DNA of 62,880 nt, the filler included, from Circinaria calcarea (lineage: Eukaryota): assembly GCA_051942165.1 (NCBI GenBank). It is 8 parts of 8 records of this genome, joined end to end, with 100 filler letters (N's around TTAATTAATTAA, not from the genome) between each part and the next. Parts side by side here need not be neighbours in the genome. Positions count along the whole stretch, not along the records: positions 7,890 to 15,675 come from JAVECS010001249.1; 7 more parts are not named here. The stretch is one strand, 5' to 3'. Numbering within the stretch: the stretch's first letter is position 1; each line of letters starts with the position of its first letter. The position numbers and the translations under genes were made by a program. Of the stretch, positions 3,927 to 39,407 are shown piece by piece. The notes below the pieces were generated by a model. The model was not told where the DNA came from and ran no database searches. It saw only the letters and a list, made by a program, of their open reading frames with translations.

Positions 3927-5052
3927 TGGAATTGTCTATCCCTCAAGCTGGTCCCTTTGGCGCGGGTCAGTCGAAGGAATGCGCTGATAACATCCGACTT
4001 GCTTAACTGAGCGGGCAAGTCATTCCACTGAACTGTTTGTAGTGTGGATTTGGATATCATATAAGAACGAGGAGACGTCCAGCTGTATATATCGATGATT
4101 ACTGTATAGTCTACATGGCGATGTATTGAAAGTCGTCCATTTCTAAACTAGCAGTTTCCCGATTTCCTACTTCAATGAAAGCTCGAATAGGAATAGTGTC
4201 TCGAGTAGGGCTGAATAATGATGATTTATGAGGCGAGACAGAATTACTGCGAATGGATAGGGTTATTCCGGTGTTTCGATTTTGCCCAGTTCCCCTACTA
4301 CCACTTGCGATAATGTCTCCGTAGCAAAGCATGATGACGGCCTCGATCAAGGAAGCATCCAATGTCCCAGTGTGGACGAGGTCCAAAGTCGACTAAACCG
4401 ACTTTGGTGTAGCCGATCTTGTTTTTCCCACTTTCCCCAAGTTCCCAGGTTTCCCCTTCGATCCGCAGCCAACCAGCAGTCCCTCAGTCCCTCAGTCCCT
4501 GCCCCCGAAGCTGAAACCCGACCCAAGACGGCGTGTGCAAAGAGACGATGGACTGATTGTGGTTTGTGAGACCGAACAAGAAAGCCAGACCGGTTCTGTA
4601 GGGCAAGGGCACCGGCACCGGCACAGGCACATCGCTGAAGCCCCGGCTTACCGCTGATGCATTCCGCTTCTCGGCATCTCTCCCCCCATTTACACGCCGA
4701 GACCTCTTTGAACAACACGCGCGCCTCGACCCTCGTACCCAATGTGTGGTCGTAGCCTGGTATGTACCTTTTCTTCCTTTAGCCCTAACACATCGAGGCA
4801 TTCGCCAAACAATCTCTTCTTCCTGCCTCTCGCTCGGGGACCCTCCACCGTGGTCGACGCTTCGGCGTCCTCTACCATCCAAACTTGCGCGCACACATTC
4901 TTGATCAACCGACCATGGCCGCGTCAGTGTATTCAAGCGCAAGCGCTTTGCTAACGGGCCGCTGCTTGTTACAGTCTTCCTATCCTGTACGAATCGATGG
5001 TTGAGGCCGCTGGAGATCCCCAGCTGGCCATTCTTCTCCTCCTCCCACCGCG

Positions 5053-7789
5053 ATGATGCCGTCTCCGTACCCCGTTCAGCCTCAAGCGCCAAGCCCAGCC
5101 CGGAGCGAGAACACTCCCTCGTCCTTGTCACAGAATGGCATTGCCGTGAGAGACAGTTACGAGGCTACGCCGTCGACGGCCCCAGTAGCCAACGGCATTT
5201 CTCAGGTCGAGGGAACAGGCCTCAGCGAGACCCCTAACACCATCGAAGAAGGGAAGTTGAAGGCCAGGGCGGTAGTGGCTGCCTCTGGTCTCCCAGTCGC
5301 ATCATCCAATAACCCCCGAGCATCACCCGAGCCTCTCATTCCCCCGTCCACACACGAAGGGATAATCAATGGCGCGAGCCGGGGCAGGAAACGTTCGCGT
5401 TCCGGGACACGAATGCCACAAGCTGCCCAACAACCGGCCTTACCTGTGCGGACCAAGGAGACTGCGGACAAGGTGCTTTTGGAACAATATGTCAACCGCG
5501 ATCAAGTTCACTCGGCCGCCATGATTGTCGACAAGTTTGCGCAGGATCAGCTCATTCGGTCCAAGGTCGAAGAGACAGCGTCGTACAGTAAGCTCGGACG
5601 AGAACGACCAGGAACTGCCGCTGCAATCTTCGGCCACGGATACGCCGGATATGGGAATGGTGATACGAATGCGCAAACCAGAGGGTTGAAGGTGATTTAT
5701 CCTATGCAGCGCAGACGGCCGGGAGGGAGAAAATCAAGAGAATTGCGAGTAACTCGAAAAGAAGCAGCGGCTCAGGCAGAGCAACTGGATGAACTTGTAC
5801 CGATTCGATTGGACATTGAGTGGGACAAGATCAGATTGCGTGATACCTTCACTTGGAACATCCACGATCGAGTCGTGTCCCCTGAATTGTTTGCCGAGCA
5901 GATGGTGGAAGATTTCAAGCTACCCCTTGATCAATGTGGTTCCCTGGTCCAAAAGATATGTGAAAGTATACAAGAACAAGTCCACGACTTTCACCCGCAA
6001 GTCTTCATTGACGAGGAGGCACTCGATCCGCAATTGCCTTATCATGCTTACAAGAACGACGAGATGCGGATCATAATCAAGTTGAACATAACCATTGGTC
6101 AGCATACTCTTGTCGACCAATTTGAATGGGAAATCAACAGTCCGGTGAACTCACCAGAAGAATTTGCTAGACAAATGGCTCAGGACCTCTCCCTTAGCGG
6201 GGAATTCACAACTGCCATAGCGCACTCAATCCGCGAGCAAAGTCAATTATTCACCCGCAGTCTCTTTGTTACTGGTCATCCGTTTGATGGTCGTCCTATC
6301 GAAGACCCGGAGCTCAAGCAGGCCTTTTTGCCCTCTCCGTTAAACTCGCCCTTCCGTCCTTATCAAGCTGCCAAAGACTTCACCCCATATCTTTATGAGT
6401 TGAACGAGCTTGAGCTTGAGAAGACCGAGTTGTCATTATCAAGGGAAGAGCGCCGGCAGAAGCGTTCAGTCAACCGCCGGGGTGGGCCTGCACTTCCGGA
6501 CCTCAAAGACCGACGACGGACCATACGAACACTTGTGGTCTCTTCTATACTTCCAGGGGCTGCAGAAACGATGGAAGACAGTCGCATCTTCAAACGAACG
6601 GCGGTAGCGGCCGGTAAAGGTCGTCGACCAGGCCTTAATCCAAAAGATGGTGTTGAAGACTCTGAAGAGTCAGATAGTGGCGACTCGTCACCAGATTCAC
6701 CAGCTATTCCATCACATCTGCTTGCGGGTACTGCACGGACAAGAGGCATGAGAGGGGCGGCGTCTGCTGCGCAAGCAGCAATGCGTGCAAATATTGGTCG
6801 GTCAATTACACCAGAAATCTCTTCATTACATCATCACGAAACACGAACTTCTGGGCGAAGATTCGGTGGCAAAGACAACCGTGAGGAGAGTGCTGACTTA
6901 CCTACCTCTCTCATCGTCAAACTACCCATATCTCGAGACCGATACCAACAGTTCCTTCGAGACGAGCGAGCAAGAAGCAAAGGTGACTTGCTACAGCCGC
7001 ATACTATGCCATCTTCTCGGCTATCTCTAAGCACGATGTCAGGGATTGGAACGTCTACTCCAGGTTCAATGGGCCCTCCAACGACAACGACTCCACATTT
7101 ACAGCAACAGCATCCAGCTGCACAACAAAATGGAGATCCAAAGCTAGCGGAAGGGTCAGAAACGGACTTACGGCAGCAACAAAACCCTACCTTGCAGTTA
7201 GGTAGAGTGGATGCCTTGGGTCCACCTGGCCATGAATTCCCAATTGTACGTAGCTGATCGTTTCCTTTATCCTTATGTTTGACGCCCACCGCAAAGGCTG
7301 TTCCAGAGGTCCATTTGAGCCTGCGCTAAGATGTTGTGTCCTTATGATTCGTAGTACCCTCACCATGTGTCCTCACGTTGATGATTAGCTACTGGTTCCA
7401 TTCGATACTTGCGTATCACAGCTTCATTCCTCCATCTTTCTCATATTCTATCGGAGATCTGCCATGTCTCGCGATCAGCATATCAATCGGTGAGAGGGTT
7501 TGAGATGCTAATGTTACCGTTTTCAATAGCCAGCACCGCCTACCTTCCTAACAGCAGCTCTTGTGAAGCTGCAGGAAAGTTATCCTGACGACTCTTTTGA
7601 GGGAACAATGCGCTACACCGCCGTCTCCACTCTCACTGACACTCCTATAAGTTCCCGATCAGATACACCCTATCCGCCTGATACTAAATTTTGCTACTAC
7701 CCGCGAATTAAATGTAAAGATTGTCCTGGTAAGTTGTACACACCTGGTCCTGGCACGGGTGTGGATAATTTCGAGGTACATTTGAAGAA
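5053..7789 (+). CDS. SNF5: SWI/SNF chromatin remodelling subunit Snf5 (3' truncated by contig end)
   Basis: Snf5 repeats LVPIRLDIEWDKIRLRDTFTWN and IKLNITIGQHTLVDQFEWEI..SPEEFARQMAQDLSLSGEFTTAIAHSIREQ. Intron 7246-7529 leads to an exon with RIKCKDCPGKLY..NFEVHLK. Confidence 0.95.
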
Positions 7790-7889: not shown

Positions 7890-8257
7890 AAGAGCTACCG
7901 TTGATGAGTATCTTCGTTTACTAATGTGCCGATGAATTCACGCACCAAGTAGCCCACTTTGACAGCCGCCAGGATTAAGGCAGGGTATCTTAAGTCATTC
8001 GGACCTATGTATGCCAATACCTCGAAGTCTTTCCCAGGGCCAAGTGTCTGATGCAGCCACCAGGCCATGCCATTGATAGCATTCGCAAATTCGCCATAAG
8101 TGATTTTGCGGTACCCTTGTGCATAGCTCAGTGTCGAGATCGGATATTCTGCATAGAGCTTATGGGGGTTAGTCCCAGCCAGGTGGTCGACTATGTCAGG
8201 AATAAGCCATTTGCGATAATCAGGACGCTCGACATTTTGTGCTGGATCCATAGCCAT
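7890..8257 (-). CDS. N-terminus of NRPS-like adenylating enzyme (A-T-R / carboxylic acid reductase type), truncated by contig end
   Basis: LIPDIVDHLAGTNPHKLYAEYPIS..GYRKITYGEFANAINGMAWWL..LAYIGPNDLRYPALILAAVKVGY is typical of fungal NRPS-like A domains. Intron 7945-7895 (GTGCGT..TAG). Confidence 0.85.
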
Positions 8258-8934
8258 GAGAGGCGATGGACCTGAGGCCTGAAATGATGAGGTGTAATAA
8301 GGATAAAGGCACTTGGTGATTACTGTGTTTGTATAGGACCATGCCGAACCCGGCAATTCAGATACTGACTGGATGACCCGACGATCTACGGAATACCCGA
8401 GTACGGTGGCATGAATGGACCTTACGGCAACAATAAATTTTTGAAAATTTTTTTTGAACTTTTGTTTTCGGAAAATCGCTTTTCGACTTCGCGCACGCCA
8501 GCTTCTGTCGTTTCTACCATAGTAATTACTACGGCAGCAGCGACAGCGCATGTAATTAGATAGGTAGCTTGAGATAATATTATTACGAAAACAAATCTCT
8601 ACCACTTGCGCTGTAGTCATTCACTCGTAGATTCATAATAAATTGCGAAACCTTCGCTGAATAATAAATAGTGTAACCGTAGAAACCAAAGCGGGGCGAA
8701 AACAATGGTTTGATTGGAAGCCCAACCTTTGCACTTTAACATAACTAGACCAATGTTTTTTCCATCGTACGCATATTATGGCTCGGAAACCAATTGATTT
8801 AGATCTGTATAAGGAGGAGATTACTCGAATGTTTCGCGCCGCGATAGGAGGAAGCCAAAACCAGGCGGGGAATTTTACGGGCCAACTCTTCAGGACAAAG
8901 GGTGTAGGCGGTGAGAAACTTACTCCAAATTAGG

Positions 8935-11900
8935 TCAGTGGGGCCGCTTTTGTAATTTCTTCTGTTGATGTCCAAATATAATCGCCCCTTGTTGCTCGAG
9001 ACTAGTGGCGGACTGCGGTCGTCTACAATTCTTTACCAGCTCCTGAGTGCGATGACATGGCGAACGATCGTCGTGGGTACAATCTGCAAATGAAGTATTT
9101 TCGTGACTAATCTGCCAAAACAGAGTACAGCCGAGCTTCGAGCAGGAGCCTGGTTCTTGGGAATGTTTGGACAACTGCGTAATACATTTCACGCTGGCTG
9201 TGAGATAGTCCTGATCTGTCGGTACTGACTCCCAAATCTTGCAGAGTTTCTGCGTGACTTTATTGGGAACAATGACCTCACCAAGCCCACTGCAAAGCAG
9301 GACAACCATATTCGGGTCACTTGCCAGGCCCTTCCAATTCCCTTTGAATGCACTGGTAGCTGGCTTTTTTGCTGTGCTGTAAGGATCCCGAGTCACAAGT
9401 TCTATCAAGTCCCAGCCGATCAAATAATCGCCTGAGGACTCGTGGTCTTTCTCGGCCACTATTACATTTTCCAACTCTATCCAATATTTTTTGACCAAGT
9501 CTTTCAGCGTATATGGCTTGTCGTTGTCCTTTGAATCATAGAGTCGGTGGCTACTGTTTTCGTAGATGACCTTCTGTGCCTCTCGACCAATGTCCCACGC
9601 AGCGTTTGCGTACGGCAATTCTGAGAGCGGTGTGGGAAAGCTATCCTTGTGCAGAAAAGCCCAGATGTGAATCATATGTAATATGACGCCCAGAGCTGGT
9701 ACCATCCAGGCTCGACGGCCAGAAGTATCGTAGAGTATTAGAGGCATACTGCTGCTATGAGACAGAATTTCTTCATACGAACGCTCTTCTCTTGTTAGAG
9801 ATAGTCTTTTCGGTTTTGTGAAAGTTACGGTGACGGAAGGTCCTCCAAATTTGGGTAAGGTGAAACCAAGAGTGAAACCCGAAAGTACTGGCCTTCGACT
9901 GGCAGGATTTGCTTGAGAGAATCCGATATCATTATAAGCTCCATCCTTGGTGCCGAGATGGATACTGACTTCCCTATAACAACCAAGGAAGGCCCTCCTT
10001 TGTGCTAGGATATTCAAGTCTGTTAGTGGCCATAGCGCTCTGCTACGCTCGTCAGCCAACAGTGCTAGTGATATCGGTGTTGGCTTTTGGTCATAAAGCA
10101 GATGCCATTGAACAGATTTTGCCTCTGAATTGACCATCCGAGGAAGGTGTTTCGGAAAAATGATTGTCGAAAATCCTTTAAGAACGAGGCCTCCTTTGTA
10201 CTCCATAGGACCAATGATTCCCGCAAAATATATCATTGCCTCGAAGGGAATCTCAACACCATATTCTTCATCCCTAGGTCTGATTGGAAATCCATATGCC
10301 AGCACTCCGTTTAGGAAAAGTGGGTGCCAGCAAGCTTGAGACGTTGCTCTAATGTCCTGAAGCTGGAGAAGCTTTAAGTCGAAAACTCCAGAATCTTTTG
10401 TTTCATTAAAAACGAACTTTGAACAGGCGAATTTCCCTTCACTTGGGACACGAAATGCTGTACTCAGCCAGGCAAGCTGTTGTGCTATGCCAATCACGTC
10501 TTCTCGGGAACCCTCTACAACAATAGTAGCTCTTTCTTTGGACTGGGAGACATCACTAGTCCATAATTGGCAAAAGATCGTCGTTCCTAAAGATGATGAT
10601 TCTTCTTGATCAAACGTTAGCTTCCAACTCCCAGGTAAAGAATATTGTACCCACCGTGCCGACCAGTTCTAAAAGCCTTTTCCAGTGCCATGACCATAAA
10701 TTCTCCAGTCGCGGGCCAGTTTCTGCGACAATAGTCCAGACACGACGACGCCTCGGCGTTTATGATGCCTCCACTTACTGTAAGCACATTTACAAACGTA
10801 TCACCCTCCTCAAGCTCGCTTTTGACATACTGTATTAGCTCCCACTGAACATGAAAAGTCGCCGAACACAACCCTGATGCGGGGAGTATCGGTTGCAGGA
10901 CATGGTGTATATATTGGAGAGGTGAGCAGATCTGCTTGACTATATTGTGCTTGAAATTGCGAAATGCGACACCCCTTGTCAGCCATAGGATGGTATCATC
11001 CGTCAGTGACTGAGGAATGCTGTCCGGTTCATCATCGGAGGTATCACTTGCACTACTTTGATCATCCATGTGCTCATCGCTAGCTAAGATGTTTCCTTGA
11101 CTCTCGTTTCTGGTATAATCTTCAGCATTTCTGTAGTCTGAGCCAGCCGTTTTTCCCAGTCTTATTCCATCTGTGGCCTCTACGGCGGCAGCGTCTTGCT
11201 GTGGCTGGACCGCATGGTGTAGATTCTGTGAATACGTTTCCACACCAGCTTCTACTGTCTGCTCCACTAGATCTTCTAGTTGCTCACCCTCCCTGCTTGT
11301 GGAAGGCTTCAACACTTCGCAAACACGAAAGGCGAAATAGGCGCTAAATCTGCGAAGGATCCAGATTGTACCTTTCTGAACGTCCGTTCGGTTTTCTCTG
11401 CTTAAGACAGAGCAAAACTCTCTTATTTTGCACTTAAAAATGCGTCTGAAAAGAGATTTCCCTTTGATCTCCAGCATTTTCTTACAGAGGTCTTTCAGGT
11501 CAGGATCCAAAAGAACTTCGAAAGTGAGGATTGTGAAAATGGCTTCTGGAAGCTTATTCTCGAGGACGCTGCCGTAATGCCCCAGCTTTGCGTTAACGTC
11601 CGCTCCGCTTTCCAGCAGCAATCGCACTACACTTTCATGGCCGCTATACGAGGCGACTTGAAGGGCGCTGTTGTTAGGGTACGCTCCCATCTCCAGCAGC
11701 ATTTGGACCACATCTTGATGACCGTCAATACAGGCAGCATGAAGGGCGCTGCCGTAATGCCCCAGCTTTGCGTTAATCTTCGCTCCGCTCTTCAGCAGTA
11801 ATCGCACCACACCTTCATGACCGCTAGCGGAGGCAGCTTGCAATGCGTAACCGAGCGTCTCTTCAGAATTAGTGTTCGCACCATTTTCTAACAACAGGCG

Positions 11901-13671
11901 GACCACCACAATGTGACCATGGTCCGCAGCTGTCTGCAATGCTTCCCTGTATTCCATTTTCGCGAAGTCTATCTTTATCCTTTTCTGTACTAGCTGTCGC
12001 ACCAGTTCCTCGCTGCCATGCAGTGCTGCCATTTGCAGTACGGCGTCATAGTTGCCGCTCAGCTTATCAGCGTCAATAGTACCGGTTTGAAACTTTGAGC
12101 TGTTAACGAGTATGGAAGTGAGGCTATCGAGGCATCTTTGAATGCCAGGAGACTCCGCATTTAACATTTTAGCTTGTTGGGTTACTGCGTATAAAAGCAA
12201 TTTCTCCGACTCAATATATTCGCCTTGAGATAGCAAAACATCACCTAGGCCCATAATTGAAATTAGTGTAGAGCGATCTTCTTTTCCCAACACCCTTTCC
12301 ATTACTGCCAATGTGTGCCGATAAATATCTTCAGCCTCCTGATATCGGCCCTGATTACTTAGCACTCCCGCCACATTATTCATAGTCGCTAGTACGTTAG
12401 GATGCTCCGGCCCCAGTACCTTTCCCATCACTGCTAATGCGTCTTGATATATTTTTTCAGCCTCCTGATACTTATCTTGATGGCTAAGCGCTCCCGCTAT
12501 ATTGCTCATACTCGTTAATACGTTAGGATGCTCTGGCCCCAGTACCTTTTCTATGACTGATAATGTGTGCCGATATATCCCTTCAGCCTCCTGATATCGG
12601 CCCTGATTACTTAGCACTCCCGCTGTATTGTTCATACTCGTTAATACGTCAGGATGCTCCTTACCTAATACTCTTTGTATCACCGCTAGTGCTTGTGAAT
12701 ACATAGCCTCTGCCCTTTTGTGCTGGCCTTGGTGGCTGAGCATGGACGCTAGATTTACTATACTGCTCAGCGTATCTGGATCTTCCTCGCCTAGTACACG
12801 CCTTCTAGTCTGGAGTACTGTCTCCCCTAGCTCCTCCGCCTCAGCCCGTTGGTTAATGAACGCCGCCGCTTGCGCAATTGCCAATGGCATGACCTCCTCC
12901 ATATGCTGCACCAAAGTCTTCGCATCCTCCACGCCTGCTGAAACTGTGAGCTTTTTACGCAGAAGAACTTGTGCTGTGTCTGAGTCCATCGGGCCCAACT
13001 CGATAATATGCTTTGCACTCCCAGTCAGCTGAACGGCTACCTCATGGTTGCGAGACGTTATCAGCGTAGATCCGTTAGCCGTCCTTGGAAGATAGTCCGA
13101 TAGTGACCGAGAGTCGTGACCAACCTGGTCGTATTGGCTTCTCCATAGGTGACAAACTACGTCCATATCGTCGGCATTATCAATAATCAGCACCCATGGA
13201 CCGTGGGTACCGAGCCAGTGGCCGACAACTTCCAGAATATTGGCATTCGCTTTATCCCAGCCCGGTGCGTGTGTTCTCTCTGCAATAATTCGGAACCATT
13301 TTTCCACCAGCGTCGTCGAGCTCGCGTCTACCCAAAACACCCAGATGCCTGGCCCCTCGTCTCGGATCCGATACGCATATTCAATGGCTAAGTGGGACTT
13401 CCTGTACACGTTGTCAGCTCAGATCCTCAATGTCGTGTGCTAGGATGGATATCACCCAACACCTCCTAATCCCACCAAAGCTACTCGAGAGGCGGAATCG
13501 TATCGTCGGCTCCAAAGCTGGTCAAGCTCATCTCGGTTTGTAAAGTTAGGGTCGCGATCGAAGGGTACGGTGGATGTGGGGCGTGACCATGGTTGCGCAG
13601 CGGCTGTCGAGGATGTCAGCGAAGGAATCTAGGGTAGTTTTGAAAAGGCTCTTACGGTTGATGCGAACCAT
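8935..13671 (-). CDS. NLR-like STAND protein: truncated NB-ARC + about 6 TPR + about 5 ankyrin repeats + large uncharacterised C-terminal domain (4 exons, about 1500 aa)
   Basis: ATG at 13671; introns 13655-13604, 13455-13402 and 10654-10605. Splicing gives VPFDRDPNFTNR, Walker A VGLGGVG|KSHLA, Walker B WVLIIDNADD, LITSRN and PLAIAQAAAFI. The third intron joins ORFs 10617-13409 and 8935-10497 in frame. Confidence 0.85.
11567..12050 (-). repeat. Coding ankyrin repeats
   Basis: ALQ.A...GH..VVRLLL..GA..N units; 30-nt exact duplicate at 11567 and 11747. Confidence 0.9.
12130..12845 (-). repeat. Coding tandem repeat, 126-bp (42-aa) TPR units
   Basis: Units like QEAE.IY..AL....VLG.EHP.VL..MNN.AGVLS.QG.Y; a 43-nt exact match at 12329 and 12581 (252 bp apart). 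Confidence 0.92.
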
Positions 13672-15419
13672 GGCTCGTTGCACCTGTAAGCTTGGGAGTT
13701 GTCATGGGAGAAATACCACCAAGGTGAATGGTTCTGGATGGAGGGGTTGTTGGGTGAGGTCGCTTCTCGACTTGGCTTTTAGATAGCTAACACGAGATCT
13801 ATTCCACGTCGAAGATCTCGGCTCATGGACGAGAAAGTGAGACACTGTGAGAAAAGCAGAGCATTACAGGGAGGGCACTACGTCTTTAAAAACGATGCAC
13901 AATGTAGCGGTGAAGTATGTATGGGTAAATGCTATGAAATAGGTTGTGCAATAAAGGGTGTGTGCATTTGTTCTATCCGTTGCAGAAAGGCTCGGGGGAT
14001 GGGTGAGATGGAGTGTTCTAATCGCTATTTGCGGCAAAGCCGGCTTTCACGGTGGGGCAGGACGCATGGAACAGTAACCTATCACCGATGGCCGTTATGC
14101 CGTTTGTGAGAGGGACGTAGAGGGGGTGGTGAATGTAGCGAGGTAGTACAGTGAACCTTGGCCATAACGAATTGATAAGTTGGAAACTTTTATTCGTTAT
14201 GAAGGAGTTCTCGTTAAGATTATATCCGTTATAGCTCGGAAAAGGAATGATATGTCGTGGCCGTGTATATTGGGCGAACACTAAGAGAGATATCTCTTTA
14301 AAGGTAAAACATCTTGGACCCAACAGTCTTGGATGAAATAGCCCCGGAAGGTGTAGGAAGGAATTTGTTAGCAGTACGGAGTACTGGTATTCGGGCTTTT
14401 TGACTGTCGGCCCGACCAAGCCCACTAACTTTAGGCTATAGCCCCTAAAGCCCGGACCGGATGGTCAGAATGCCCGAGTGGTCAGATTACAGGTAAGACC
14501 TTCTGTCTCAGAGGAGCGTAAACGGCATCTCGCACGTGTAAATTTCGGTAGCACCTCCAAGGTAAAGATAGCAACGACTCCCAAGACCACATTGTAGGCT
14601 ACATCTTGCGCGACCATCATCACCGGCCAAAGGTGACACCTCTATATCTGTTACCCGTCCACTTCACCTATGTACCTTTCGCAATCCTATCCATCCCCGG
14701 GTATATCCGGATCAAAGACTGAACCAGAACCGCAGTCGTACAGACACTGTCGCCTTCGCAAGATATCCCCCCCTCCAAATCATCTCCCTCATCCGACCGC
14801 GGCTCGAAGAACTTTACTAATTCCTAGACAACTCAGGCAGTAGCCAGCGTATCTACCCACAGCGTCACCTATTGTTGTTTCTTCTTCACATGGTTTGAGC
14901 AATAAGCATGAAATGATGTTTGCTTGAATCGTGCTCACAGGACACGATGTATTGAACATGTCCCCAATCACACATCCACAATATTCCTTGGCGGACTGCA
15001 ATAGGTCCCTGGAGAACCGACGGCCAGAAGCACGAGAAGATTCTCCGCACGCGGATGAGATGGTTGTTGGGGAATCGAAGGGAGCTTTGGACCAGCATGC
15101 GAGGAAATCAATGTTGTGGGAGATGCAAGTTTTCTGTATGGCCAATTAAGTCTATAGCTGCTTATGAGCTTGCCGCTATATGTAAAATGTAACACCTATC
15201 CCGCTTGTCTCGCACTTCTCCGTCTCCTTGTCACTTTACTGTTTAAAAGGGCACGCCCAGATTAGAACTAAGCGAGCGTGTGTAAATCCAAGCAAAGAAG
15301 AAAGTATCGAATACGCAATACTTTACTGTATGCTCCAACACATTTTATGATGAAGACGCGGGGAAAACAGCCATTCCTTGTGCAGTAGCCTTCATTCCTT
15401 CCGGCGTAAAGGATTGGTA

Positions 15420-15647
15420 ATGTCTAAGACTACCTTTCCTACCTCGGGTATCCAAGACGAAAACCGCTGGTCCGACGATCGTCGTATTGTTCGTATTGAT
15501 GGGGTTCGCTGCGTTTCCGGCGCTAGTGACGTACAAAAAGTCTCCGCCTGGAATGAAGTCAATGGCTCCTACGGTGCTAAGTCTGCTGAGGAATGTGCCA
15601 CTTTGGACGTCAACCGCGTAGGTGCTGTTGCCGAAAGGATCTGTTAT
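15420..15647 (+). CDS. Exon of an unknown protein, truncated by contig end (weak resemblance to RidA/YjgF-like N-terminus)
   Basis: ATG 15420, MSKTTFPTSGIQDENRWSDDRRIVRIDGVRCVSGASD...AERICY, followed by donor GTAACC (15648) and a TACTAAT branch-like site. Protein-like composition; the family call is only an impression. Confidence 0.5.
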
Positions 15648-15675
15648 GTAACCAGTTCCAGTCTTGGTACTAATC

Positions 15676-15775
15676 NNNNNNNNNNNNNNNNNNNNNNNNN
15701 NNNNNNNNNNNNNNNNNNNTTAATTAATTAANNNNNNNNNNNNNNNNNNNNNNNNNNNNNNNNNNNNNNNNNNNN
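15676..15775. other. Artificial contig spacer
   Basis: N44-TTAATTAATTAA-N44. Confidence 0.98.
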
Positions 15776-15788
15776 GCTCCCAACATCT

Positions 15789-18163
15789 CTAAACCCCCCT
15801 GGCCTTCTCGATATACTCCTGGCTCGCGGCCTCGTACTCGGCCGTGAAGAAGCGGGCGGAATTCTTGCCGAGCCACTGCGTCAGCTTGGCGAGTTCTTCG
15901 CGGAGGCGGTTGACGGCTTGCTGGTCCATGTTTGTCTGGGCGATGAGTTCGGGCATGGAGACTGGTGGGGGATGATGTTGTTAGTGATGAAAGAGGGGCT
16001 TTTGGGGGGAGGTTGGGTAGGTGGGTAGGAAGGAGGGGTAGGGGAGCAAATGTGTGTTGATGTGTTAGGAGGGAAAAGCAGCAAAGGATAGTGATAGTGA
16101 CAAACTTACCGAAAAGCCTACACAAGTGTTCGGCACCGTAGACGTCTCCCGCTCCTTTCCCCTCCCATTCCCCGGTACCGGCTTCCCAGAGCTGGCGGAT
16201 TTCGAAAAACTGTTCGCGTTCAAAGCGATAGAGCAAGATCCTCCCGAGACACTTCTCAAAGTACTCCTTTACGCCTACGACGACTTCCTCGAGGAGATCA
16301 GCGTCTGCGGAGCCGACTCGGCGCTTGCCTTTCTCTTCGTCAAAATACGTGTCGAGTATGACGTTAACGGGGGTCTTGGACGGAAGCGGGACAAGGGAGA
16401 GATTCTTGGTGACGTTCTCCCAGTCGTCGACCAGGATAGCTTTGAGGTGGTCGGGAACGAGGAGGCGGATCGCCGGGCGCGAGTGGAATGCTTCTTCCTG
16501 GAAGGGATTGTTAACATCGGTACTTTCCTGTCCATCTGTCGGGCCTCCAAATTGGGTCCTGGTGGGTTTGCTGCCGGCCTTGGGTGCGCGTAAAGGGTGA
16601 AGAGGTTGCTCCTTTCCATAACCGGCAATCATGAGCTTGAGGCTGGGTTCCTGGGCATAAAAGAACTGCCGCTTGGGTTCATTGCCGCCGTGCCTCTTGA
16701 ATTGAGGATGTTCTTTGACGAGCGTCAAGTTGGCTGGAAATGCAGGTTGAATGGAAAGCGTGTTTCCATTCCGGCCGCGATTTAATCGAGGCTCGCTTGG
16801 AGCTGGTACAGAGAGGATCTGTTCTGCGGTTTCCGTCACGCTGATTCCTGTCATGTCCTCCTGTTCTTTGGATTTGCTACTACGTCCGCGACGACTCTTG
16901 GGCAAGGGTTTGATCTTTGGAACGATATCTGGTTGCTTTTCTCCCGGAATAATAGGAGACGAGGATCCAAGTTCTGCAACGTGATCTGGATTGCTCTGAT
17001 CTGAAAGGGTTGGGGAGGAGGTTGTAAGGCCTGGGATGATATCCGGCTGGCTTTCCCTTGGAACGGTAGAGGAACGGGATTCAAGATCTGGAGTGATTTC
17101 CGGATGGCTTTTCCTTGAAACACTAGGGGACGGTGGATGAGAAGCCACGGTGCCGATGGAGTCCTCGGCTTTAACCTTGAGATTGGGGAATGTGGGAGAA
17201 GTTATGGTGGAAGAAGAAAGATGGGGAGCGGTAACATTGATGGGCCCATCAACCGTAGAAGGGATGGATTTGCTCCGTCTGGTGACCGGTTTGGCCATGG
17301 TGGTAGATGATGTTAAAAGAGATGTGCGGTTACCAACCTTGTCGATTTCGTAATCCCTCCCACGCTTCTGACCCCGTCCCATTGCAGGAACGGACGAGTG
17401 CCTCTCTTCGCTGCCACGAGTGGAGCTTAAATCTGAGCCGGCAGCTTTTTTCTTCGACGAGGTCATGGTTGGTTTTGGTGCTGCAGGTCGCTTCTGCATG
17501 TCAAGGTCCTTTTTCAAGTTGCGAGCCAGTTCTTTGTTCTCCTCTGTGAATTTCCGGAGCCGTGCCTCGTTGACCCAATCGTCCCACCTGAGGTGCGTTG
17601 GGTAGGAAGTTAGCTTAGTTTGCGGAAGACGCTACTCTGAGCAATGCAGGAAGGACAAAGATATGAAGGAGGAGGCGTCGAAAAGCTCGATTACGCGAAA
17701 GCTATCACCCCAATGAAGCTGATATACGAAGGAATCTTGAAGCTTGAGGTTTCAGTGCAGCACTGGAGACCAGTATAAGACAGTGAAAGGCTTTAGGTGC
17801 AAGAATCGTATCCAGTAGGCAGAGAGATGGTGTTCTGCCCCAGAACATCCGGGGCATGTAAGAAGAAGGAAAGGAGAATAGACGAGGCGAGACCTATGCT
17901 AAACTACTAGCGTCTATTTGTGTGAATAAAGTCCTATTACCCCTTACCCAGCAACAATCATGATTGACAATAGAAAGCAAAGCTGAAACGTACGTATTCT
18001 TCCAACCCCGATAATGGATCCTATACAGGAATTGGCTCTTCTTGTCGGTAGGATCCGATAGTTTGGAGTCCAATACTTTGGCCTCATACAGAAGCTCATG
18101 GTGGAAGCAGAGGATTTTCTCATCTTTACTATACGCCGGTTGCTGCGGCGCTGAAGGAGCCAT
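15789..18163 (-). CDS. EAF3: Chromodomain/MRG protein Eaf3 (NuA4/Rpd3S subunit)
   Basis: Chromo-barrel ILCFHHELLYEAKV..YRIHYRGWKNT|WDDWV and MRG domain LKAILVDDWENVTKN..ILLYRFEREQ..VYGAEHLCRLF|VSMPELIAQTNMD. Introns 17993-17588, 17337-16498 and 16109-15962; stop TAG ends at 15789. Confidence 0.95.
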
Positions 18164-19821: not shown

Positions 19822-22800
19822 TTAGTTACTCTGATCCGTGGCGATCAAGGTCTGTTTGGAAGCTTCAGGCTCATCTGCAATGGCAAACCGTGCCGTCTTC
19901 TTCGGTTTCCTGCGGGGACCCTTGGGTTGTGCCATGAGTATGCCTTCAGCTGTCTGGAAAGCAACGGGCTCAGTCTTCCGTCTCTTACTTGGGGTGTTTC
20001 CTGCACTTTCCAGGAGGAGTTCCGGCTCAAGCTCAAGGGGAAACGTTGCTTTTCTTTTGCCATTGGATGCTTTTGACCTCACCTCTGGTCCTCCTGCTGG
20101 CAAAATCAGATCGGCATCGGCATTGTGCAGGCCTGGAATCTCCGTTGAATTGCGATTGAACAAATGTTGAGGAGCCACAAGCGGGGCCATCTGCTTCTCT
20201 ACATCGTGCATCTCGTCTTCGGAGATTGCGATAAATGTCGCATTTTTGATAATGTCGCTCATTGTCGAATCATCCAAAAGGCTCTTTTGAGCTTTTTGGT
20301 GTTCCTGGGATGTCATGGCTTTACGTCTTTGCAGCATCTGGTCTTCTAGTGTGTCCTTCAACACCAGTGTCTCGACGTAGACAGGCCGCATTTGCCCGAT
20401 CCGATGAGTACGCTTGATCGCTTGTGCTTCAATGTTAGGTTGCCATACCGGGTTCACGAAGAAAACACGGGAGGCACAAGCAACATGAAGTCCATGGGCG
20501 GCTTGACGCAAATCCATGATCATAACTCGAAACGTTTCTGTGGTGTTGAATGTTGTCATGTACGCACTTCGTCGATCAACTGTCAAACCGCTTGCGTAGA
20601 TCAAGTGCTGGACGCCTATAATCTCGAGGGCTTGAGCGATATAGTACGCAATGTGATCGCCTTCGTAGAAGATCAGGATTTTTTCCTCGTGATGGAGTGC
20701 ACTGACTTTATCGAGTAGATAACTCAGTTTTGCAGAAGCCGTCCCAGAGAGCCTCGTGCGGTTTAATGGCGATTCCGGCAATACCGCAGTAGATGATGAA
20801 GGTGCGGACCGTTTGAGGGCAGATTTTAGGATTGGAGACTTAGGAACAAAATCCGCATCATGCTCTTCAGGACTAATGTGTGCTTGAGGAGTTCTTTCGG
20901 GAAGAGATATGATCCGTGATTTAGTATGTTTGCTATTGACTGGGGGTGCATTCATGACACTCGAACTTGGAATCCCTGTTTTCTCGTGAGGGCCGAGTTT
21001 TGTGGGTTTCTTGGGACTGCATTTCTCTACTTTTGCTACCGACCGTCTCTGCGCATTGGTCCAAGCCTTCTCCATTGCTGCTATACCTGCTGCAGCTAAT
21101 CCATGAGTTGGATCCGATGCGTAGAGATGCTCGTTCACATATTTCTGGGCTAAGCCCAGCTGAGTGGCCCCAGTAAACAGAGGACGCGAGCTTACGTCGG
21201 TGGACAGTGCCCATGAACTTCGAGCTGCCGACGGAAAATCCTCTACGCACAATCCAATCTCGTTGAGTTCACCGAAGATCTTCCATAACGGAGAATCAAA
21301 GGAGATGCGACCCACGTCAATTGCTTTTTCTAGTAACGTACGATCTTGTTCGTCCGGATTGCTCTCTTTTTTGTCTAGGTAACCCTGACTGACTCTAAGG
21401 GTCTCGGTAACATCGTGGGCTGTAAAGCCCGTCCAGTAAAAGCCCGACTGTCTTAGATTCATGATCAAGTGATCTAAGGCTTTCCGGTTGTTGGGATGAA
21501 ACATATAGTCCTGGTCAACTCGCTCCGAAGTGATGGCATTAGCCGTGAGGACCATGAGGAAAAGGTTGATGGAAAGTTTGTCGAAAAAGCAAGGTTGTAG
21601 ATGCACCACACGATTATTCAAGGGGGGCAATTGAAGGTCCATCTCGACGTCTTCAATGCGATGACGCACGACAAGGCTTGCTAGAGTGCTCTTCAAGGCC
21701 TTGACTTTTCGCTCGCCATCCTTGGTCGGCATTACATACTTGTGCCATGAGGCGTAATCCTCTCCAGCCCTCAGATTTGCCCACGGCTTCAGTCCCAGAA
21801 AGTCGGCAACAATGTACCCTAGCTTCACAAGGTCTTTGCGTTCTTCTGCCAAAGCAATGTTCTTTCTTTGAGCATGGAGGCTTTGTTGATTTGACGTGGC
21901 TCTGGTACTGAGATCTGCGTCCCGGGTCTCATTTGCCGCGATACCCACCTCGATACCCAGTAGGCCATTAGCTGGAGTACCGCTAACTATCCATCGTCGT
22001 TCCACGTGAAGATTATGTAGGACATGAATAGCATTGCTTTTTGTTCCAGATGCAAAATTGTGGCCTTCATCCACAATGAGACGAAGGAAACGTAGATCCC
22101 TCAAGGGAGAGCGATACGGTACGATGGGTGGACAATCGCAGTTACGGTTGGAACAGGTACATGGACTTGCCTTTTTCTGCTTGTTCAAAGCAGCCTCGGT
22201 GGAAAGTACCTCTCGTTCGAAGCGCTGTCTATGCATCAATATTATATCGTACTGAAGGAGTTCAGCGGCGGAGGGGAGCTGCTGTTGTAGAGAATCAACC
22301 ACTAGAACAGCTAGGCTGTCTTCATCGATGTGGGTTGAGATTTCCTGCTGCCACTGGGCAATCAGATTGGGAGGAACTATGATTAGAGTGGCTGGACACA
22401 GACGGATCGTCTCTCCATCCGGTATTGCTGAAGGTCGTCGCCCACCTCTGGGTACCCGCCCAGGAAGTTTGTACGAGCCAATATTCTCCTCCAAAGCCTT
22501 AAGGCACGAATCATAATCTTCTCCTGCGTTTGAAAAACGCTCAAAATGAGCTTTCCACGGGATCTGCATGCGTCCAACAGTTGCAGCCGCCATTTGGACC
22601 AGCGAACCGACTTTAGGTCGGACAGGATGAAGACCCAAGGAGTGTTCTGGAGGAATCTGTGGCCAATGTCCTTTGGTTGAGAGAATGGTTGCTAAACAAA
22701 TTAACGTTTTACCGAAACCCATGGTCTCTGCTAGGATCCCGCCCCTGGCTTCATCGTACTCCCGCTTATCAATTCGGATCTGACCAGCTTCCGTGTCGTA

Positions 22801-23554
22801 GTAGAAAGTCTTTCCTGTAGGCCCCGTACGCTCTTCAAGTCGTGGATCGAGGCCTCGAGCCGGTTGAGTCTCTCTCTGTACCATGATGGCTGCCGAGCGT
22901 TGTTGGTACGGGTATAGCTTGGTTTTGAGACCCGAGACCATTGGTGTTTGTTGAAGCAGTTCCTCGACCGCAACTCTAGAGTGAATGTTGGAGATCTTGG
23001 TGGGGTCCGGACAGGGGGATGCGAGAGTATTAAACAGGTAAAAGAGGGAATCGTCCTCATGAGTCTCCTTATCGTATGACGTTATCGGTGTCTCTACAGA
23101 CCCGAGCCCTTGCCAAGCATGCCTCGATTTGTCAAGGACCTCAATCAGGTTCAGCAAGGCCTTTCTCGGTTTGAGTTCGTCCCTCGGTAGGTATCGCCGC
23201 CCAACGTCGTCCGGGAGCACATATATTCTGATTGCCCCCAGTTTGTGGTCCGACTGGTGCCTCCGGGAGAAAATCCGGATCCATTCTGCGCGTAACAGAG
23301 TCCGGAGATCGGCCCAGAGGGAGTGATCTGGTGGGACTGGCACCTGAATGCCAGTCGACTCCACCCAGTCATCACTGAAGTCTGTCACAGTTTTGGGAAC
23401 TATTGTGAGACTGCCCAGTGGCATATAGTCGTCGCCGCGAAGGTACTTCCATGCCCGGTACTTTGAATCGTGTTGGCTGCGGGCCAAATACTCCGATGGT
23501 TGGGTTTCGGGCGGCGGAGAACTGAGGAAATCTCCGCTGGGAGAAGGGATCGAC
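19822..23554 (-). CDS. SNF2-family (Rad5/Rad16-like) helicase/ATPase, 5' probably truncated
   Basis: LYPYQQRS, GGILAETMGFGKT, LIVDEGH, RWIVSGTP and VFFVNPVWQPNIEAQAIKRTHRIGQ; the frame stays open to the contig end. Confidence 0.9.
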
Positions 23555-23654
23555 NNNNNNNNNNNNNNNNNNNNNNNNNNNNNNNNNNNNNNNNNNNNTT
23601 AATTAATTAANNNNNNNNNNNNNNNNNNNNNNNNNNNNNNNNNNNNNNNNNNNN
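23555..23654. other. Artificial contig spacer
   Basis: N44-TTAATTAATTAA-N44. Confidence 0.98.
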
Positions 23655-23770: not shown

Positions 23771-26588
23771 CTACACCTTCACGATCTTATAACTCCCGCC
23801 CACAACCTCCAGCCTCCCCTCCAGCACCATCCTGCCCAAAAATTCCTTGAGCTCCTCATTCCCATACGGGAACCCTCCGGGGACCGCAATCTTCAACATC
23901 ATGACGATGCGCGCCAGCGACATGGCGCCCTGGTTTGTCAGCATGCCGACGATAAACTGCCAGAAGACGGTCATTTTCTCCGAGGCGACGTCTGCCTCGG
24001 AGCGGATGGCCGAGGTCGTGGCGGCGGAGGCGACAGCGTCAGCGGCCGCCGCGGCTTGCGCGGCTTGGTTGGTGCCGTCCTGGTGATTGAGGTCGGTGGC
24101 GGTGAGGGTCTCGAGGACGGTGTAGGTGCCCGGTGGGGATTCGCGCAGGACAAGCTTGCTGACCCAGAAGGTGAGAGCGCTGAGGACGAGGGCTTTCTCC
24201 ATAGCCAGCCTGTCGATGATTTGGTCGACGGTCAACTGCACGGGATTGGCGGCATGGCTATCGGAATCGTGGAAGGCGTTGATGACCGTGGCTTGCGATG
24301 TCGACACCTCTTCGGTAACGGTGCGATCGTCGAGGTGGATTTCGACGGTGACTTGACCGAGGGCGGGCAACCAAGTGAGTTTACGGGACTGCTTGAGGGT
24401 TTCGAAGCCTTCGGAGTAGCGGGTCTGCAGAGCTTCGATTTGGGAGGGGACGCAGAAATCTTCGCCGTGGAGAGCGGGCCAGAAGAGGCGGGAGAGGATT
24501 TTGCTGTGGAATTCGGGTGCCGGCTGGGCATTTATGGGTCGGTCGAGCTGTTGGTCTTTGTGAATGACGGCGTCGACACGGCGAGAGTCGAGAACGTCTC
24601 GAAGCATGACTTCGCAGGCTTGAAGCGCTGGTTCACCAAAACGCAGTTTTAGCAGCTCGAGTACACGGATCTGGAAGACAGATATCAGTAAGAAGATCAT
24701 AACGAGGATAACAGACATCGGACATACCTCTTTGTCGAATTCAAAGTCCCTTTTCAACAGGCGCTCCGCCATCATGTTTTGGAACTCCTTTACAAAAATG
24801 TCTTTGCTTTCGAATATACTGATGAGTGTACCTATTACGTCCAAGTTCTTCGACTTTTGAAAATCTGTAGACCCGGTTAGTGACTGTATCGAGAGATTGT
24901 AACAGGTACAAAACCCGTAGGATCCTTACCAGGCCCGGCATCCACAGGATCAGGTAGCCAGGACATATCGTCCCAATCGAGCTCTCCATCGTCATCGTCC
25001 GCGGCTGAAATTTCTGTGATCTTGTTTAGTTCAACAGCCAATTCTACGAAAGTGTCTGGAGTATTGGAATCGCTATCGGCATCTGCCAACAAGCCGCCAA
25101 CAATGACCTTGACCGTATCATCACGCTCTCGGAGATATCTTCGTATAGGCCGTGCTAGACGCTCTAGTAGTACTCCTTTTGGATCCAAGGCTGCGAATGC
25201 ACGGATGATGCACGTGTACATCTGCAATATCTCGGTAGTGGATGCTCCAGGCTGCAATAGGCGATTCGAGATAACACCAGAGAAATAATTCGTAAGATGA
25301 ACCCTTGCAGTAGGAGTCGTAACGTAGTGCTTCAGATCCTCAATCGCACCTTTACTATCATTATCCCAAGCGACGACTATGTCGAAAAGTTCCTTGAGCC
25401 TAAGTGTCCCAAGGTCGCAGATTGCCCTTTGTTGCCAGCTTATAACGTCAGCAAAGGTAATTTGAAATCGCGGATCGGCAGTGGGTCCTATGCCACCGTT
25501 GAGGATTATCAGCATCTCTATGACGAATCGGGCAAAATGGTTTTCAACCCAGTCTCGTAGCTGTTCGGGAATGGTTGATGGTGATGTCCATTTACCAGCA
25601 TAATTGGAGTTGATGTACTCTGTTAGTAGTTCACTCATGACCTCAGCAAAAATCCGCTGGGCATAAGCACCCCCCAACCCTACCTCCTCAACAGCCTTGA
25701 TGTTGGTTGCTTGGGTACCTCGTAGTTCCGCGATGGCAACTGCATGGTCCTCCTCCATGGCATCCTCGTCTGTAATAAGCCCAGAGGGTTTATAACTTAG
25801 TAAAGCAGAACCGGTTCGCAAGAAAAAGTTGCGAAGATATTCCGTGAATCCGTTATGGCAGAGTAACTTGGCTACCAGTGCATGGTGGCGTTGTAGGAAT
25901 GAAGTTTCGAGGAAACTGGCCAGCTCGCGATGACCCGTGGAAGACAAAACCGGCAGAATGTAAGCTTTGAGCGGAGCTATATACATGGCTTGCACTGCGG
26001 TAAGAATTGAAAGCACATCGTCAAGGATGGCCGATACTGCATGCTCAGGGGGGAACATGCGTATGTCCGTGAGACGCGTTGAGGGTTTGGAAGAATGTAG
26101 TAGCTACAGGAGTTAGCTTTATCTTCATGTTTCCCCAACAGTACCGCTCTCACCTTAATTATTACGGGAAGCTGTACATCCACGAAGTGTTTACCCACTT
26201 CATGGGCGTACCAATCTATAATATCATCCTGATTATCAGAAACCTTTGATAGGGTTCTTTGTGGCCGCGTGGAAAGCAGGTGGATAATGCTAGCTGATAT
26301 CTCTTGAGTGTAGGGTTTGGGCCATCTGGCTTTGACGGAATGCCTTTCACCCGCTGTCACTGGCTGATCAGGTAGGCTTAGAAAGGCGGTGACATTGTGC
26401 CATGCCCGCTCCTTTCTAATTGTTTCAGCTACCGCAGATTCTTCATTTCCCGGGAAGACACCTGTAGAAAACGAAGGTGATCCCAGAAATGGAGATGAGC
26501 CTAATACGGGTGTGGCAGTTGGAGTTGGTGTCGTGGTGTTTGTGAAAGAGGGGAAAACCTCACTGAAGACGTGCTTTCGAGGTGCCAT
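23771..26588 (-). CDS. APC2: Anaphase-promoting complex subunit 2 (cullin-like), multi-exon
   Basis: RLKELFDIV..W, RLLQPGAST.EIL, YLRERDDTV, WLPDPVDAGP, LELLKLRFGE..LQACEVMLRDV, ILSRLFWP, RKLTWLPALGQV and a C-terminal FWQFIVGMLTN winged helix. Confidence 0.95.
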
Positions 26589-29723: not shown

Positions 29724-31405
29724 ATGGCCGCTCAGAGCTCGACCATCCCCCCTTCCCAGGCTGAATATGGAGGAGGTTGATCCCCTTTCAACGTCCCAAG
29801 ACCTTTGCTGACGGTTGGAACCAGATGAGATATCGGCTCTGGTTCTCGATCCTGGTTACTCGACAACGCGTGCGGGGTTTGCAGGAGAAGATGTGCCCAA
29901 GTCCGTGACCTCCTCCTACTACGGCCGAGTCCCAATAGATAACGGCCATAAATATCTCTATGGAGATAACTCAATACACATACCTACACCTGGAATATCA
30001 ATACGGAATCCAATGGCAAAGGATGGAACGGTGGAAGATTGGGACACAGCTACGAATTTATGGGAATACGCAATCACATCACGCCTTACGAACCCGAAGC
30101 CACGAAATCCGTTAACGAATGGACTGAATAATGACCCAGGGCAGTTCCCCTTTACGGATGAGGATAAAGCGACTGACGTAGAAGAGCTGGAAAAGCCTTT
30201 GGAGGAAAACCCCCTTCTCATGACAGAAACGGGGTGGAATTCGGGAAAAGGACGCGAGAGGGGTATCGAGATCGCCATGGAGAATTGGGGATGTCCAGCG
30301 TACTGGCTTGCGCGAAATGGGGTACTAGCAGCGTGAGTAGTCCGTCAACAACTGTTTCCGCTGTTCGAATCCCAAACTCACAAACGGCCCAAACCTTCAG
30401 CTTCGCCGCCGGCAAACCCTCCGCCCTCGTCGTCGACCTAGGCGCATCCAGCATCTCCATCACCCCCGTCCACGACGGCCTCATCCTCAAAAAAGGCGTC
30501 ATGCGCTCCCCCCTCGCCGGCAACTTCATCTCCGACCAGCTGCGCCTCCTCTTCTCCACCTCGCAGCCACCCATTCCCTTAACCCCGCACTACCTCGTTA
30601 CGTCCAAAACCCCCGTCGACGCCGGCAGCCCCTCGCAAGCTACCTACCGCTCCTTCGCCCCCAACGCCGCCCCCCACGATTCCTTCCGCCGGCTGCAAGA
30701 AGAGCGCGTCCTTACCGAGTTCAAAGAAAGCGTCGTGCAGGTCTGGCCCGGCCCCGGCAAGTTAGCCGGACAAAGCCCGCAAGGCGCGCCGAACGAAGAA
30801 GTGGCCAAGCTTCAACCGGGTCGTCCTTTTGAGATGCCGGACGGCTGGAACCAAATCTTTGGTGTGGAACGCTACCGCGCCGCCGAGGGCATCTTCGACA
30901 TCAGCGCCGTGCTTTCCGATGCCGCGAACCCGGCACCTCAGGCAAGCTTGACACTTCCCGCCATCATCCAGCAGTCGCTCTCGCAGGTCGATGTGGACAT
31001 CCGCCCGCACCTGCTCGGCAATATTGTCGTCACGGGCGGCACATCCCTGCTGCAGGGTTTCACGGACCGCTTGAACTACGAGATCACGACTGCGTTTCCG
31101 AGTCCCCGCGTCCGGTTGAGTGCGCCGGGCCGGGTGGAGGAGAGGAAGTTTTCGTCGTGGATCGGGGGCAGCATCCTGGCGAGTTTGGGGACGTTTCATC
31201 AGGTAAGAGTCTTCTCCTCCCATTTTTTTTTTCCTTTTCTTTTATTTTTTTTCTTGGTGAACTTTGAAGGGGGTGGTTAGAAAGGAAAGGCGTACAAGGG
31301 GATTTAGATCCTTTGACTGATGGAACTGACTGGTCACAGATGTGGATTTCCAAAAAGGAGTACGAGGAGCATGGAGCTGGGATCGTGGAGAAGAGGTGCA
31401 AGTAG
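29724..31405 (+). CDS. ARP4: Nuclear actin-related protein Arp4, 4 exons
   Basis: [58 protein letters not shown] and [35 protein letters not shown]. Confidence 0.95.
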
Positions 31406-39306: not shown

Positions 39307-39406
39307 NNNNNNNNNNNNNNNNNNNNNNNNNNNNNNNNNNNNNNNNNNNNTTAATTAATTAANNNNNNNNNNNNNNNNNNNNNNNNNNNNNNNNNNNNNN
39401 NNNNNN
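39307..39406. other. Artificial contig spacer
   Basis: N44-TTAATTAATTAA-N44. Confidence 0.98.
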
Positions 39407-39407
39407 C

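Follow-up and report, generated by a model that had tools for sequence, protein, structure and literature searches.

A gene of Circinaria calcarea joining NB-ARC-type, tetratricopeptide and ankyrin regions to a C-terminal PF28131 module

The locus and its gene model

The 62,880-nucleotide (nt) stretch of DNA analysed here, called the window, joins eight parts of eight records from the genome of the lichen-forming ascomycete Circinaria calcarea (GenBank assembly GCA_051942165.1), and parts that stand side by side in it need not be neighbours in the genome. One record, JAVECS010001249.1 (window positions 7,890–15,675), carries on its minus strand a gene whose product begins like a fungal NOD-like receptor (NLR; NOD, nucleotide-binding oligomerization domain), proceeds through tetratricopeptide repeats (TPRs) and ankyrin repeats, and ends in a large region of the catalogued Pfam family PF28131. 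A preliminary description of this DNA had assembled one gene from three short introns, and that model holds. Two minus-strand open reading frames (ORFs) cover the locus, 10617–13418 (933 codons) and 8935–10668 (577 codons). Joining the exons 13671–13656, 13603–13456, 13401–10655 and 10604–8935 gives a stop-free coding sequence (CDS) of 4581 nt, and its translation matches, letter for letter, the deposited 1526-amino-acid (aa) protein 'MAG: hypothetical protein Q9187_005387 [Circinaria calcarea]' (P0001; MAG, metagenome-assembled genome). Because the CDS built from these exons translates identically to P0001, the gene model first described is the deposited automatic annotation. The introns (13655–13604, 52 nt; 13455–13402, 54 nt; 10654–10605, 50 nt) each run from GT to AG, with CTGAC, CTGAC and CTAAC near the 3′ ends of introns 1, 2 and 3, respectively. 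The parts of the gene, from its start to its stop codon, are:

13656–13671, minus strand: predicted exon 1, ATG and 5 codons (MVRIN), the weakest part of the model; included in the CDS that equals P0001
13604–13655, minus strand: intron 1 in the DNA sequence, 52 nt, GTAAGA..CTGAC..CAG
13456–13603, minus strand: exon 2, with the linker that precedes the NOD (TSTVPFDRDPNF) and the first half of the P-loop (GLGGVG); aligns to the post-SesA linker of relatives, e.g. P0165
13402–13455, minus strand: intron 2 in the DNA sequence, 54 nt, splitting the P-loop codons (GVG/KS)
12849–13401, minus strand: NB-ARC-type nucleotide-binding and first helical domain (838 relatives at E ≤ 1e-3), with Walker B VLIIDNADD at 13193–13167, LITSRN at 13064–13047 and MPLAIAQAAAFINQ at 12890–12849
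12846–12849, minus strand: in-frame deletion junction, where ∼182 aa of relatives are absent (alignment A2 and tblastn)
12081–12845, minus strand: TPR_10/TPR_12 array of 5–6 units (Pfam TPR_12 E 3e-63, TPR_10 E 8e-63)
11559–12056, minus strand: ankyrin array of 5 repeats and a sixth broken after HYGSVLE (Pfam Ank_2 E 4e-27, Ank E 3e-25)
11301–11558, minus strand: predicted six-helix bundle (model 1 residues 8–118, predicted local distance difference test score (pLDDT) ∼90)
11007–11300, minus strand: acidic low-complexity linker, predicted to be disordered (model 1 residues 107–175, pLDDT < 50)
10655–11006, minus strand: N-terminal part of the C-terminal module (FHVQWE.., VLTVSGG.., WPATGE), a small alpha/beta unit
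10605–10654, minus strand: intron 3 in the DNA sequence, 50 nt, phase 1, GTGGGT..CTAAC..AAG, within the conserved module
8935–10604, minus strand: PF28131 core and stop codon (PF28131 precomputed on P0001 and all homologues)

Pfam matches and the placement of motifs bear out the order proposed at the outset, from the NOD through TPRs and ankyrins to a large extra region. The Pfam scan of P0001 returned five TPR_10, five TPR_12, four Ank and two Ank_2 stretches. By eye there are 5–6 TPR units (aa 241–∼490) and five ankyrin repeats, with a sixth cut at HYGSVLE/NKLPEAIF (11559/11558), in keeping with the original count of about six TPRs and five ankyrins and with a break placed at HYGS/VLENK. The C-terminal motifs were recovered as well: IAQQLAWL at 10488–10465, CWHPLF at 10332–10315, QWHLL at 10110–10096 and a Cys/His tail at ∼9090–9043.

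Both nucleotide-binding motifs of the NOD, the P-loop GLGGVGKS (aa 50–57, split by intron 2) and Walker B VLIIDNADD (aa 125–133), are intact. The Pfam scan of P0001 gave no NB-ARC (PF00931) match at threshold and one weak NACHT match below cut-off (E ∼1e-3, 19.4 bits). A phmmer search with residues 1–262 found 838 relatives at E ≤ 1e-3, many of them with precomputed PF00931. ORF-limited gene models of relatives have their start point (MYRK...) inside the equivalent of intron 2.

Relatives, losses and the third intron

Among the 838 NOD matches, 119 others are listed, and the architecture figures come from those listed. Four of the 119 (P0161, P0162, P0163 and P0179) share both repeat types with P0001: they carry NB-ARC, DUF7779, TPR and ankyrin regions and continue into the same C-terminal region, with 57–59% identity to P0001 over the whole of alignment A2 and 64–71% in the NOD part. 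P0161–P0163 extend through a Ser-rich linker, the bundle and the N-terminal part of the C-terminal module up to the position of intron 3, while P0179 ends sooner, within that N-terminal part. Two proteins with the order NACHT-ankyrin-PF28131 (P0003 and P0010) were also found. The architecture, initially called unusual, therefore recurs.

Set against these relatives, P0001 has in-frame gaps in the NOD and at the ankyrin end. The winged-helix/DUF7779 region of P0161 (aa 187–368, ∼182 aa) lacks a counterpart, AAAFINQ running straight into a TPR unit, and the tblastn high-scoring segment pairs of P0161, P0162 and P0163 break at 12849/12846. PF25000 (DUF7779) is precomputed on relatives and not on P0001, whose NOD thus lacks the winged helix (ARC2). 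Between the sixth ankyrin and the bundle, ∼84 aa are absent where relatives have a full repeat and a Ser-rich linker. P0001 starts only 44 aa before the P-loop. A tblastn search with the first 300 aa of seven of the more distant, SesA-bearing relatives, covering 2 kilobases (kb) upstream, found no SesA-like sequence there and homology only from ∼13622 downstream, in agreement with the earlier statement that no N-terminal effector is recognisable. Because relatives carry the NOD part, the ankyrin end and a SesA domain before the linker, the three odd features of P0001 are losses (∼182 aa in the NOD, ∼84 aa in the ankyrin region, and the N-terminal domain). With a NOD that lacks the winged helix, the protein is not filed as a complete NLR.

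The 50-nt intron at 10654–10605 had been proposed to join the two big ORFs in frame, and comparison across the family supports this. Family-conserved columns (W242, G266, Y279 and W284 of alignment A1) lie upstream of intron 3 and the rest of the domain downstream, where the ORF shows no ATG close to its 5′ end. At a related metagenome locus (L001), a 51-nt intron (GTATGT..TTCAG) occupies the homologous position in identical phase. At a second related locus (L002) the frame is uninterrupted and the DNA equals the spliced L001 junction exactly (TAT C/AG GAA ACC), a precise intron loss. In the 921-aa protein P0281, whose core is 71% identical, a 17-codon equivalent of the intron is read through in frame, with linker, bundle, N-terminal part and core in one frame. 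Conserved columns on both sides, the missing downstream ATG, the L001 and L002 junctions and the P0281 read-through together argue for one gene across intron 3. It is barely credible that a gene predictor merged two separate genes here, an NLR remnant and a PF28131 gene. Such a merger would accord with the ORF-level public models of relatives, which often cover one half and split at the intron-3 position (P0161–P0163 end at the intron, and many models of 520–580 aa consist of the core alone). However, the core-only models begin at varied internal methionines or without one, as expected from ORF-limited calling, and on this and the four grounds just given we rejected the two-gene reading.

Cores from the lichen clade that are 55–62% identical to that of the window follow differing N-terminal parts: NB-ARC-TPR-ankyrin in P0001, NACHT-ankyrin in P0003, an NB-ARC fragment without repeats in P0002, a sesB-like part with ankyrin in L001, and degenerate TPRs with ankyrin in the frameshifted and truncated L002. 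The helical bundle is kept in P0002, P0003, P0161–P0163, L001 and L002. What stays constant across these shuffled contexts is thus the cassette made up of bundle, linker and PF28131.

Three of these relatives have features of their own. P0002 (1072 aa) fuses an NB-ARC fragment, reaching from Walker B up to where the winged helix begins, directly to the bundle and PF28131; judged by its sequence, it is a second, independent deletion-type derivative within the subfamily. L001:1037–9610 holds a divergent, head-to-head gene pair ∼500 base pairs apart. Its minus-strand gene encodes a sesB-like hydrolase motif (5153–4665), NB-ARC (4015–3353) and a long TPR array (2695–1037), and its plus-strand gene a sesB-like motif (5680–5988), ankyrin (6452–6910), the helical bundle and PF28131 (to 9610), an arrangement that recalls the sensor/helper NLR pairs of plants. 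Just downstream of the PF28131 gene, at L001:9765–10249, overlapping minus-strand ORFs encode tandem units of ∼17 aa (NPLFLQIPCSFKSPVPS). L002:2428–5307 is a near-copy of the L001 gene with degenerate TPR units instead of the sesB-like part. Most of its acidic linker is gone, its frame breaks near 5017–5032 and homology stops at 5307; it is probably a pseudogene or a product of retro-copy-mediated conversion.

The PF28131 family

The C-terminal 860 residues of P0001, which had no match in a Pfam scan with a library not including PF28131, were presented in the preliminary description as a region of unrelated sequence. They belong instead to a large family: PF28131 is precomputed on P0001 and on every homologue found. 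An exhaustive phmmer search with the last exon against 1.84 billion cluster representatives (clusters at 50% identity) gave 2188 matches at E ≤ 1e-3, 1207 at E ≤ 1e-10 and 335 at E ≤ 1e-30, and the best 150 listed homologues of the core range from E = 0 to 1e-45. Chance is excluded, because the homologues run from E = 0 to 2188 clusters at E ≤ 1e-3. By source name, members come from Lecanoromycetes, Leotiomycetes, Sordariomycetes, Orbiliomycetes and Dothideomycetes. A literature search on 'PF28131' found no paper.

Several positions of the core are invariant (C1062-W1063, G1086, Q1136-W1137-H1138, W1394, C1425 and C1487) and others nearly so (D1263, H1280 and C1479). The window copy equals the consensus at all 56 columns conserved at ≥85%, at which the other 73 sequences have a median of three deviations.

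Partner domains were sought with Pfam at E ≤ 1e-5 in 41 long members, namely 37 of the 150 listed (≥965 aa) together with P0006, P0009, P0010 and P0011. Twenty of the 41 have partners and 21 have none. The partners are NPHP3_N/NACHT with ankyrin (P0003, P0010), ankyrin alone (P0057, P0115), PNP_UDP with ankyrin (P0028), TPR (P0009, P0024), patatin (P0039), Abhydrolase_2 (P0025), SesA with CRC_subunit (P0092), CRC_subunit (P0053), Pkinase (P0006, P0079), ULD_2 (P0032), DUF7580 (P0127, P0149), KilA-N (P0046), Response_reg (P0072), SH3 (P0143) and PAH with PNP_UDP (P0011). Among 42 members of 700–960 aa, 40 have no partner; a GRF zinc ribbon occurs in one of the other two and a Zn(2)Cys(6) cluster (Zn_clus) in the second. 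P0322 carries a precomputed homeobox. A NACHT-type domain occurs in two of the 83 scanned members and not in the other 81, a count to be read with the fact that many of the gene models are truncated.

The AlphaFold and Foldseek analysis of the C-terminal region that had been suggested produced confident models and no match to a solved fold. AlphaFold2 model 1 (860 residues, 42-row alignment) has a mean pLDDT of 75.7 and consists of a bundle of six helices, followed by an acidic, disordered linker and ∼640 residues of alpha/beta structure. Model 2, of the last exon alone (74 rows), has a pLDDT of 83.6, with 307 of 555 residues at ≥90. Foldseek against PDB gave no convincing fold match for either model (best E 0.36 and 0.25), and neither did a structure search of BFVD (best E 0.12). 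In the ESM Atlas the core had no usable match, and P0286 met only unnamed eukaryotic clusters at 0.88, under the level that counts. PADLOC and NCBIfam searches returned nothing of note. A match of the A1 profile to YfbR among PDB sequences (E 0.07 over 70 residues) was taken as chance. Because both models exceed 400 residues and single-domain matches are missable at that size, these results mean that no fold match was found and not that none exists.

Elsewhere in the window, the ORFs at 5005–7257, 15724–17631, 19822–23598, 23771–26103, 27415–28434 and 30177–31280 are housekeeping genes (SNF5, MRG, an SNF2-family helicase, APC2 with cullin and ANAPC2, MBOAT and an actin-family protein), and no obvious NLR cluster surrounds the gene within the window. 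Directly downstream of the gene, a minus-strand ORF of 241 codons (7895–8620) has no Pfam match at E ≤ 1e-5; its C-terminal part may resemble the start of an adenylate-forming enzyme. Four long ORFs, at 37164–39182, 39363–40628, 41962–43647 and 47292–49988 (672, 421, 561 and 898 codons), are likewise blank in Pfam at E ≤ 1e-5.

Explanations and comparison with known systems

We consider it probable that the window holds an NLR-derived, deletion-bearing gene from a subfamily that shuffles its N-terminal parts and keeps the PF28131 cassette constant. In this lichen fungus an NLR chassis of NB-ARC, TPR and ankyrin regions is fused C-terminally to the bundle, the acidic linker and PF28131, and in relatives the same cassette sits behind NACHT-ankyrin, a sesB-like hydrolase with ankyrin, an NB-ARC fragment or a kinase. 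On this reading the window copy is a deletion derivative, its N-terminal effector not detectable and its winged helix and ankyrin end lost, that retains the P-loop, Walker B, an open frame of 1526 codons and all conserved PF28131 positions. The proposal of a chimeric receptor with an extra C-terminal domain is thus borne out in part, as to gene model, fusion and order. Signal transduction ATPases with numerous domains (STAND proteins), as in Apaf-1 and NLRs, pass between closed and open states in a nucleotide-dependent switch. Without the winged helix, the canonical ADP/ATP switch could hardly work, and it is doubtful that P0001 still operates as one. Its selected activity would most likely lie in the PF28131 module, while the two repeat arrays, TPR and ankyrin, would serve as binding surfaces.

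As to the role of PF28131, our tentative preference is a conserved ligand-binding or switch module that controls fused death or enzymatic domains, because the family stands C-terminal to SesA, patatin, PNP_UDP, alpha/beta-hydrolase and kinase domains, often without a NOD. Next comes a possible, somewhat less favoured function as a Cys/His-dependent enzyme and C-terminal executioner, suggested by how many polar residues (C, H, Q, D, R, E, S and Y) are invariant and by the fact that some members have partners that bind DNA; C1425, C1479 and C1487 might then form a structural zinc site. A broader conjecture, which we hold to be rather unlikely, is that PF28131 is a fold-novel module of fungal immunity or cell death, acting as a NOD-independent switch or a C-terminal Cys/His executioner, and that NLR chassis of lichen fungi have captured it repeatedly. 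Were this so, PF28131 could stand in for NOD and repeats, or add to them, in proteins headed by SesA, patatin, PNP_UDP, hydrolase or kinase domains, and the layout would resemble that of NLRP1, with output at the C-terminus. The window copy, its effector and winged helix shed and its PF28131 perfectly conserved, would then show the C-terminal module to be the part that matters.

Several observations weigh against these interpretations. A switch or sensor role is argued only from domain order and partners, and an enzyme would account for the invariant polar residues no less well. Partners that bind DNA (GRF, Zn_clus, KilA-N, homeobox, PAH and Rsc7-like) are not of immune type. On the NOD of P0001 the Pfam NB-ARC model stays below threshold; the losses of the N-terminal domain, the winged helix and the ankyrin end fit a decaying paralogue; and the related locus L002 is visibly frameshifted and truncated. 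The gene model is predicted, neither the preliminary description nor the annotation being transcript evidence, and the 5-codon exon 1 with its start codon has no independent support, homology being absent upstream of ∼13622. Because the sequence comes from a metagenome-assembled genome, errors of assembly could have produced the deletion junctions. Many database relatives are ORF-limited fragments, so that the architecture counts give minimum numbers and 'stand-alone' PF28131 members may be truncated models.

Two further explanations have to be set beside the deletion-bearing, NLR-derived gene that we prefer. The gene may be a decaying paralogue en route to a pseudogene, not expressed as predicted, whose frame is still open only because its losses are recent. 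The three losses, the 5-codon predicted exon 1 with ∼2 kb of non-homologous sequence upstream and the state of L002 all speak for decay, as does the birth-and-death evolution typical of fungal NLRs (described in passages of PMC4986451). However, the frame runs through 4581 nt in four exons with no stop, the three introns have canonical signals, none of the deletions shifts the frame, P-loop and Walker B are both preserved, and the PF28131 core shows 0 deviations at the 56 conserved columns, below the family median; we therefore think decay unlikely, while allowing it a real chance. Clearly less probable is an integrated decoy of the kind known from plant NLRs with integrated domains (NLR-IDs), in which an ordinary, perhaps chromatin- or DNA-associated PF28131 protein would serve as bait for antagonists. 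The scarcity of NACHT-type domains (two of 83 scanned members) and the members with GRF, Zn_clus, KilA-N, CRC_subunit (two), PAH or, on P0322, homeobox domains point in that direction, and C-terminal extra domains have been proposed as decoys in Sordariales NLRs (in passages of PMC12258605). Yet bait leaves unexplained why the domain is also joined directly, with no NOD present, to SesA, patatin, PNP_UDP and kinases, and it requires a working switch, whereas the window copy has no winged helix. Nor does a paired helper NLR adjoin the gene in the window, where the neighbours are SNF5, a Pfam-blank ORF, MRG and SNF2 genes.

Fungal NLR repertoires are large, and most of their members have no assigned function. 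Lichen fungi are of special interest among them because partner recognition is central to symbiosis. Here an NLR chassis is linked to a very large family (2188 clusters) that has confident models and no matched fold, and some of the fusion partners of PF28131 also count among the effector domains of fungal NLRs. Should PF28131 be a switch or an executioner, it would be a new module of fungal innate immunity and a target for structures and cell-death assays. Otherwise, the gene would be a clean case of an NLR subfamily that shuffles its modules and erodes in frame, and one relative offers a textbook example of precise intron loss.

The closest known proteins are the fungal NLRs with SesA, NB-ARC and TPR regions (P0165 and P0166, Geoglossum; 'kinesin light chain-like'), to which the nucleotide-binding and first helical domains of P0001 are homologous. 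SesA-bearing relatives show 42–52% identity in the NOD and share the linker before the P-loop and the TPR_10/TPR_12 repeats. P0001 differs in having no SesA or other N-terminal domain and no DUF7779, and in its added ankyrins and 860-aa C-terminal region. To the animal proteins NLRP1 and CARD8 there is a looser analogy of part order alone, a candidate output module after the repeats with a dispensable or variable N-terminus; unlike them, P0001 had no FIIND/ZU5-UPA or CARD detected by sequence or fold searches. Like plant NLR-ID receptors, it has a NOD, repeats and then a domain that also exists in non-NLR proteins. Unlike those receptors, it has no paired helper in the window, and PF28131 also occurs in direct fusion with death or enzymatic domains where no NOD is present. 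L001, in contrast to the window gene, has a divergent NB-ARC-TPR neighbour.

Passages of PMC4986451 set out the tripartite plan of fungal NLRs and the instability of their repeat numbers. In Sordariales, according to main-text passages of PMC12258605, 8% of NLRs have non-canonical domains; its authors discuss zinc fingers, SPRY domains, which always follow ankyrin, and kinases at the C-terminus as additional sensors or as integrated decoys, and a 'mixed' class comprises NLRs with several canonical domains. P0001 resembles these proteins in having an extra non-repeat domain after canonical repeats. In contrast to the zinc finger, SPRY and PKinase cases, its domain is PF28131, of ∼640 aa and without a fold match, and its NOD is incomplete; PF28131 is not named in those main-text passages, the supplementary domain tables lying outside their scope. 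The lichen fungus Xanthoria parietina has one NLR with a C-terminal papain-like protease, and several of its NLRs are up-regulated in thalli (from parts of the preprint 10.1101/2024.08.16.608140). Since both sources report such cases, fungal NLRs with an additional domain at the C-terminus are already known. What is new here is the particular domain, with its size, its spread, its lack of a fold match and its fusion partners.

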